Assembly (NCBI GenBank): GCA_964016885.1
Contig: OZ024742.1
Span: 31,496,001 to 31,560,000, forward strand
Origin: Eledone cirrhosa
Lineage: Eukaryota
Length of the DNA: 64,000 nt
Direction: 5' to 3'
The notes under the pieces are model-generated. The model saw nothing but the letters and a program-made list of their open reading frames with translations, had not been told where the DNA came from and searched no databases. How positions within the stretch are numbered: the first letter of the stretch is position 1; each line of letters opens with the position of its first letter. Below, piece after piece: positions 9,589 through 10,662 of the stretch. The position numbers were made by a program, and so were the translations under genes.

Positions 9589-9592
<4 letters not shown>

Positions 9593-9642
9593 AGTATGTA
9601 TGTATACGTACATACATATATGTATACAGACGTACAGTAGCA

Positions 9643-9692
<50 letters not shown>

Positions 9693-10139
9693 CATATATA
9701 TACATACAGGTACACATACATATATGCACGCATCAGTTTAGCGGACGCTTATTATAACGCCGCTTTGTTCGTTTGTAAACAAACTGAACAGCCTGAATTT
9801 ATGCCATACGGTGTTAAGGCAACCACGTCACCTTTTTGTTCAACACTGACACAGGAACGATGTACTAGTTTCAAGCTTGTTAGCTATCATCAGCACCGTA
9901 TACCCATCTGCCAGATAGTTGAACGTTTGAAAGTATATACTTTCCTTATGAAAATTAACGGCTGAGCAGCCTAATTTGCATATTGAGTGAGTTAGATCGG
10001 TCAGGCATACCGAAAACGATAAGTTGAAAAAAAAAAAATGAAAACGAAATTTCATTTCTCACTCTTAGTATGGCACTTACTTAAATGTAAGTATGTATGT
10101 ATACGTACATACATATATGTATACAGACGTACAGTAGCA

Positions 10140-10217
<78 letters not shown>

Positions 10218-10481
10218 CATATATATACATACAGGTACACATACATATATGCACGCATCAGTTTAGCGGACGCTTATTATAACGCCGCTTTGTTCGTTTG
10301 TAAACAAACTGAACAGCCTGAATTTATGTGTTGAACAAAAAGGTGACGTGGTTGCCTTAACACCGTATGGCATAAATTCAGGCTGTTCAGTTTGTTTACA
10401 AACGAACAAAGCGGCGTTATAATAAGCGTCCGCTAAACTGATGCGTGCATATATGTATGTGTACCTGTATGTGTATATATG

Positions 10482-10559
<78 letters not shown>

Positions 10560-10659
10560 TATATGCATGCTACTGTACGTCTGTATACATACTTACATTT
10601 AAGTAAGTGCCATACTAAGAGTGAGAAATGAAATTTCGTTTTCATTTTTTTTTTTTCAA

Positions 10660-10662
<3 letters not shown>
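9589..10662 (-). mobile_element. Retrozyme-like insertion 1: ~1.5 monomers on the minus strand (9589-10328) plus an inverted partial copy (10329-10662)
   Basis: Same sequence family as the 467-bp array at 55.8-58.9 kb. Both ends abut (TA)n. Confidence 0.88.
9857..9899 (-). ncRNA. Type I hammerhead ribozyme
   Basis: acggtg-CTGATGA-t-agct-aaca-agct-t-GAAA-c-ta-g-TA-catcgt. Confidence 0.88.

Follow-up and report, generated by a model that had tools for sequence, protein, structure and literature searches.

Two insertions in the genome of Eledone cirrhosa raise the question of how an element that lacks an ORF comes to end, at separate loci, at the same two points, with two inverted arms that face outward into (TA)n. 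Both lie within 64,000 nt of contig OZ024742.1 (positions 31,496,001 to 31,560,000, the whole stretch analysed and hereafter the window; Table 1). An earlier note on this DNA had described the two loci as sharing both termini and a divergent inverted architecture, and mapping of each arm onto the repeat unit confirmed the description. One coordinate moved: the terminus that had been placed at 10662 maps to 10663, position 10662 falling inside the TA ambiguity. The inversion junctions differ, as the note had said (unit 60/17 at the first locus and unit 297/374, with a 2-nt overlap between the arms, at the second). Substitutions separate the two copies at 6 of 351 aligned unique bases, indels being additional, and blastn of their 1-kb flanks found nothing shared. 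Thus, a single segmental duplication is excluded and the view of two independent insertions stands.

Table 1. Features of the two retrozyme insertions, in window coordinates. Unit positions refer to the 467-nt repeat unit.
Feature	Position	Strand	Basis or remark
(TA)n target tract left of insertion 1	9526..9588		sequence
A arm of insertion 1, unit 60->467,1->247 (1.4 units)	9589..10328	-	tail-less end CATACTTACA at 9589 into (TA)n
Minimal type I hammerhead motif of insertion 1	9856..9899	-	motif scan and conservation
Inversion junction of insertion 1, unit 60 / unit 17	10328..10328		1 base common to both arms
B arm of insertion 1, unit 17->310	10328..10663	+	hammerhead absent; ends TTTCAACTTA at 10663 into (TA)n
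One-sided tail of insertion 1, site A to site B, about 60 nt	10598..10663	+	this end only
(TA)n target tract right of insertion 1	10664..10729		common to the adjoining family Y insertion
B arm of insertion 2, unit 297->467,1->310	55765..56245	-	one hammerhead at 56105
A arm of insertion 2, 5.7 units, six hammerheads	56244..58924	+	ends CATACTTACATTTA into (TA)n

The hammerhead motif of insertion 1 consists of CUGAUGA at 9893 (minus strand), GAAA and the palindromic stem III ACUAGU, with the cut predicted between 9863 and 9862; the B arm of this insertion has a 24-nt internal deletion in its AT-rich part. At the second locus the A arm ends at 58920/58924, and its units are identical except for one 1-nt indel. 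Contigs of four sequencing runs over window positions 8800-11200 showed neither an empty site nor the insertion ends. The (TA)n tract was presumably present before the insertion.

The repeat unit has a period of 467 nt and is tandem, non-coding and low in GC; we number it from window position 56805, the first base past the predicted hammerhead cut. All of the 456 copies compared bear a motif with the layout predicted for a minimal type I hammerhead (a stem I of 6-7 bp, a stem II and a palindromic stem III). Its 27-nt core has 13,792 matches in the 3.0-Gb genome, against 0 for the reversed control. Arrays reach about 20 units without an ORF, and the insertions are made up of this unit alone, the RT and GIY-YIG ORF of an autonomous PLE being absent inside them. 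The retrozyme is a genuine and abundant element, non-autonomous, whose footprint is the one known from PLEs. Across the 456 copies, the hammerhead core deviates by 1.4%, compared with 22% for the free N7 position, which is a CpG site. Stem I deviates by 3% and has a single G-U to U-G swap, found in 10 locus-variants. The swap is carried by a diverged subfamily with a unit of about 422-424 nt (L065, L077, L079, L089 and L097), which keeps both ends. Stem II is closed by a non-canonical U-U in 208 of 211 locus-variants, so the predicted ribozyme cleavage may be weak. Rfam at gathering thresholds gave no hammerhead match over the window, and the predicted MFE fold of the monomer does not contain the hammerhead fold.

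The two termini recur throughout the genome. Site A lies at about unit position 248, with two sub-sites (37 and 13 counts), and site B at about unit position 309. Arms point outward, each ending in (TA)n at A or B, and the ~60 nt between the sites form a tail that is carried by one arm only. Exact site-A termini into TA number 2,624 genome-wide (with 13,207 read-through sequences) and exact site-B termini 2,085 (with 7,261), whereas the same exact-pattern search at two control TA-ending sites in the unit returned 0 and 0. Hairpins are predicted at both sites, A lying in the loop of one and B just 3' of another. A target-site duplication is unreadable inside (TA)n.

For individual insertions we annotated 201 regions, most of them located within the initial 160 Mb of contig C1, chosen by hammerhead (47), by A end (58), by B end (76) or by similarity (20). 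In the hammerhead-chosen set, where ends were not used for the choice, 77 of 92 arm ends were A (36) or B (41); the remaining 15 comprised 9 other ends, 5 at internal TA and 1 at a region edge. All 23 inverted insertions of this set with both ends classed were A+B, three of them from one duplicated block. The 201 regions together hold 159 distinct inverted insertions, namely 121 A+B, 1 A+A, 0 B+B and 37 with a damaged, internal-TA or unseen end. The sole A+A case is a duplicated 65-nt end piece, that is, a local duplication. Thus, 121 of the 122 classifiable inverted insertions pair an A end with a B end, as an inverted 5'-truncated copy with a one-sided tail. These counts uphold the two fixed termini proposed from the window. 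They do not uphold, as a rule, that the long arm ends at A and the short arm at B: either end may be found on the longer arm (one count gave 43 insertions with a longer A arm and 30 with a longer B arm, and a count over a larger set gave 36 and 51). Short A arms of 45-65 nt formed a peak that reflected an alignment break at an internal TA tract and was left out of the counts.

Fixed ends, inverted arms and a TA context would also be expected of a DNA-transposon MITE with TIRs inserted in TA, or of a fold-back artefact of assembly. The ends are asymmetric by about 60 nt, however, and both the junctions and the lengths of A+B insertions (118-5,493 bp) vary. The arms are hammerhead-bearing tandem multimers in thousands of copies of different ages, the same design is found in autonomous RT-encoding PLEs, and the unit is present in sequencing runs from 4 studies. 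We reject these explanations, to which we assign a negligible probability.

The earlier note had predicted that positions collected over many copies would give two terminus peaks and scattered inversion junctions, and this is the distribution found. Outside a microsatellite, junction starts are uniform (chi-square p 0.47), and no A+B junction coordinates recur between loci besides those of one duplicated block and microsatellite artefacts. Microhomology at the junctions is short, with a weak excess of matches of at least 2 nt (7 of 18, against 18% expected, p 0.03), and inserted bases are found at 4 of 22 junctions. Among 89 insertions (a set that leaves out L079, the duplicated block, and junction gaps >20 nt, and in which two had faulty negative lengths), 13 have near-palindromic junctions, with arm starts at most 12 nt apart, against 4.8 expected. 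Four of the 13 are microsatellite alignment artefacts, and some of these junctions lie at a palindrome at unit 386-401.

Near-palindromic junctions of this kind favour self-priming or fold-back, in which the arm synthesised first would snap back and be copied into the second, the copy being stopped or cut at the other site. Arm nesting agrees with this in part: among 64 insertions with robust arm lengths (starts inside unit 126-236 left out), 33 have an A arm that lies wholly within the B arm. Nine insertions nest the opposite way, however, and in 22, including insertion 1 of the window, neither arm contains the other and each has private sequence. There are also tail-only insertions (A 72->248 with B 256->309), whose arms do not overlap at all. 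Non-nested arms cannot arise by fold-back, which excludes it as a general route; we consider it highly improbable for the family, and it could remain for the palindromic junction subset. Two independent primings, as the note had proposed, are borne out by the 22 non-nested insertions and by the end pairing of 121 A+B to 1 A+A and 0 B+B.

Two primings could take place on one RNA or on two. In 60 insertions the two arms differ by a median of 0.6%, against 2.85% between insertions, and subfamily variants occur in both arms at 199 sites versus one arm at 38. First-pass B-arm stops at unit 246-264 number 11 of 104, where a rough constant-hazard model gives about 3.4 (rough p 0.0009); other arm starts in unit 244-265 number 7 of 200. 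The shared variants and the stops of B arms at site A make twin priming on one RNA likely, and a single RNA probably lies behind both arms.

Under the alternative, dual priming, a dimeric PLE protein would work with two RNAs that come from a single source active at the time, and priming would take place at A on the first RNA and at B on the second. A dimer is predicted for the PLE protein in PMC11167929, and arms often overlap fully, both spanning one whole unit in 15 of the 89 insertions. In three cases, moreover, a retrozyme B arm meets head-to-head a short foreign arm that runs out into (TA)n; this foreign arm has an A end of a small family described below (family X) at L071:4557-4600 and L135:4521-4589 and a B end of a resident PLE (family F2) at L073:3560-3694. 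These joins could be two-RNA chimeras or deletion products. Deletions between nested neighbours do create head-to-head cross-family joins at L318, and the join at L073 violates the A+B rule. Against dual priming we also count the variants common to both arms (199 to 38), the tendency of B arms to stop at A and the lack of any B+B insertion, which has no obvious cause with two free RNAs. We therefore regard dual priming as unlikely. Other candidate chimeras were rejected: L278 was a microsatellite false match, and at L220, L083, L087, L144 and L261 the elements are adjacent to one another, nested within TA tracts.

If one RNA served for both arms, its form should be visible in the insertions. 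Only 4 of 178 junction starts lie within 5 nt of the predicted ribozyme cut (3.8 expected), and an arm crosses this cut in 72 of 89 insertions. The missing pile-up and the crossing arms exclude a cleaved linear monomer as the template. Among the subfamily alleles of 44 multi-unit insertions, 80 cases of fixation across all units stand against 6 of polymorphism, and 293 of 339 other within-insertion differences are confined to one unit; 41 further private or subfamily sites are fixed across all units, 23 of them from one diverged subfamily. Alleles fixed in all units are expected if each array arose from one unit, for example a circle, and this homogeneity could also reflect gene conversion or assembly polishing. 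The absent pile-up and the homogeneous units give indirect support to a circular template, and on these sequence patterns we lean slightly towards priming on a circle.

The same arms might instead come from twin priming on uncleaved linear read-through transcripts of arrays, with a largely inactive hammerhead and arrays homogenised later. The non-canonical closure of stem II is consistent with such a template. Ribozyme cleavage was also dispensable in vitro for the anole PLE (PMC11167929), and eight of nine Xenopus dimers are reported to have failed to cleave (bioRxiv 10.64898/2026.07.22.740005). The alleles fixed across all units (80 plus 41 sites, 23 of the 41 from a single diverged subfamily), the junction coordinates that do not recur outside the duplicated block and the microsatellite artefacts, and the low deviation of the hammerhead core relative to N7 and stem I all speak against it. 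We consider read-through templates possible and on the improbable side.

We then looked for an enzyme that could supply the reaction. A GIY-YIG search gave 10,596 candidates, of which 150 were scored and 50 fetched. The fetched PLE loci form several families that encode an RT with a C-terminal GIY-YIG domain, a CxxC motif preceding the latter; of two ORFs tested in Pfam, each matched RVT_1 below cut-off, and one matched GIY-YIG above it. We label these resident PLEs putatively as Neptune-type, after the clade description in PMC8557442. Their termini are fixed positions within (TA)n. The inverted arms of family F2 have two such ends, separated by 64 nt, and family F1 has a tail of about 39 nt. 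None of the 50 fetched loci (of 150 scored and 10,596 candidates) yielded a PLE with sequence in common with the retrozyme unit, and retrozyme matches at GIY-YIG loci are separate neighbouring retrozyme copies; the partner is therefore proposed from architecture alone. A weak 29-nt match at L160 was rejected as a partner, as it belongs to another small element. The same locus has, at 5947-6160, a small element whose end is a hairpin next to (TA)n, and a separate hammerhead-like motif near 6851. A further PLE family, F3 (L153, L154, L158, L164 and L129), has its own minimal hammerhead about 650 nt past the GIY-YIG motif, and a motif scan up to 2.5 kb downstream in families F0-F2 found none.

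On the evidence of the termini and arms, PLE machinery with two fixed start sites is very probable. The fuller reading, in which the high-copy, hammerhead-bearing retrozyme was likely inserted by a borrowed Neptune-type PLE RT/GIY-YIG enzyme, with cDNA primed twice on one RNA, we put at roughly two in three (about 0.68). The GIY-YIG endonuclease would nick both strands within a (TA)n tract. One 3' end would prime at A, within its predicted hairpin loop, and the other at B, just 3' of the second predicted hairpin, each possibly aided by 1-4 nt of TA-like pairing. Both RTs would then move 5'-ward on a template without an effective 5' end, likely a monomer circle and otherwise an uncleaved tandem RNA, and on such an endless template the arms could be as short as a few bases or as long as many units. 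Sometimes the B-primed RT would stall at A; otherwise it would displace the other cDNA. Most B arms continue past site A, so that, on one RNA, strand displacement would be needed. The two cDNA ends would finally be joined via 0-3 nt of microhomology and filled in. More tentatively, and at somewhat short of even odds, PLE integration may by design be a two-primer reaction on one RNA, carried out by a dimeric RT-endonuclease with fixed sites bounding the tail. On a self-cleaved, circularised retrozyme this would become double rolling-circle reverse transcription, and a single step would account, in PLEs and animal retrozymes alike, for tandem arrays, the one-sided tail and the inverted pLTR.

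Much of this pattern has counterparts in EN+ PLEs, that is, Neptune and its relatives. PMC8557442 describes an inverted 5'-truncated copy, a tail of 30-40 bp that is often at one end, and (TA)n targets. PMC3846280 reports the tail on one inverted pLTR and proposes self-priming on antisense RNA for the PLE head-to-head repeats. According to PMC11167929, a PLE protein cleaves AT-rich DNA on both strands and extends each of them, and reverse transcription by the anole PLE begins in vitro at two sites inside the RNA, between which lies the tail. Minimal hammerheads with a palindromic stem III are described in PMC4209133, where they are said to act as a dimer and a circular template is proposed. 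In the portions of these papers available to us, the features that the retrozyme shares with EN+ PLEs are head-to-head arms, a one-sided extension, AT-rich or (TA)n targets and tandem units (PMC8557442, PMC3846280, PMC11167929), a minimal hammerhead with palindromic stem III (PMC4209133) and two internal RT start sites. Unlike EN+ PLEs, the retrozyme has no ORF, its arms span whole units, up to about 20, and its tail is about 60 nt against the published 30-40 nt. The strict rule of one A and one B end and the non-nested arms are unquantified in the same portions of the published accounts. With the PLE inversion-plus-tail and the two RT start sites already published (PMC11167929), the pattern itself is less new. 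What is new is that counts now support obligate two-site priming and oppose self-priming, in the form of non-nested arms (22 of 64), shared variants and B-arm stops.

Metazoan non-LTR retrozymes (PMC7229834; bioRxiv 10.64898/2026.07.22.740005) are likewise non-coding, low-GC tandem elements with a type I hammerhead in each unit and thousands of copies, and co-occurring PLEs are proposed there too as their mobilisers. In contrast to those elements, the unit here is 467 nt long, slightly above the 150-450 bp given in PMC7229834, its hammerhead is minimal rather than canonical, and it is known from genomic DNA alone. Term searches of these two papers returned nothing on inverted insertions, fixed termini or tails. 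The 2020 and 2026 papers use co-occurrence and pLTR similarity; the insertion footprint now ties a retrozyme to PLE machinery.

Twin priming and dual priming are both known from L1 (PMC2837659). Twin priming of L1 resembles the reaction proposed here in that two target-primed cDNAs on opposite strands meet in an internal inverted join with little or no microhomology. As L1 is described in that paper, its second site is opportunistic and its arms are separated by a deletion, whereas both retrozyme sites are fixed, poly(A) is unused and arms often overlap by whole units. A search for literature joining twin priming with Penelope, judged by title and the start of the abstract and with subscription papers mostly outside its reach, returned none on the PLE mechanism. 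The origin of the PLE inverted repeats and one-sided tail is called unresolved in the available portions of PMC8557442 and PMC11167929. Thousands of short young copies supply statistics able to separate models of PLE integration, and the reaction could conveniently be reconstituted on a 467-nt RNA whose two start sites are mapped.

Two other small families have the same design. Family X has a tail of 80 nt, and 10 of its 15 A-ends face the other end type; in family Y the tail is about 95 nt, and 6 of 9 B-ends do so. No A-A or B-B pairs were called in either. Insertions of family X (L062, L149, L241, L249 and others) are palindromic and nearly fixed in length, at about 180-205 bp. This is unlike the retrozyme and looks as if both RTs reached the 5' end of a short linear RNA. 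One copy of the family, at L233, has about 520 nt of unrelated DNA separating its arms. The family Y copy in the window (10725-11177) has about 250 nt between its arms, which is skipped in many other copies and is possibly captured DNA; no hammerhead motif was found in this copy. Between the two retrozyme insertions lies a 44-bp satellite of about 812 copies (15969-51582, 35 kb). Past the satellite, at 52848-52912, a tRNA-like Rfam match just above the gathering score, with a shortened acceptor stem, is possibly the head of a SINE.
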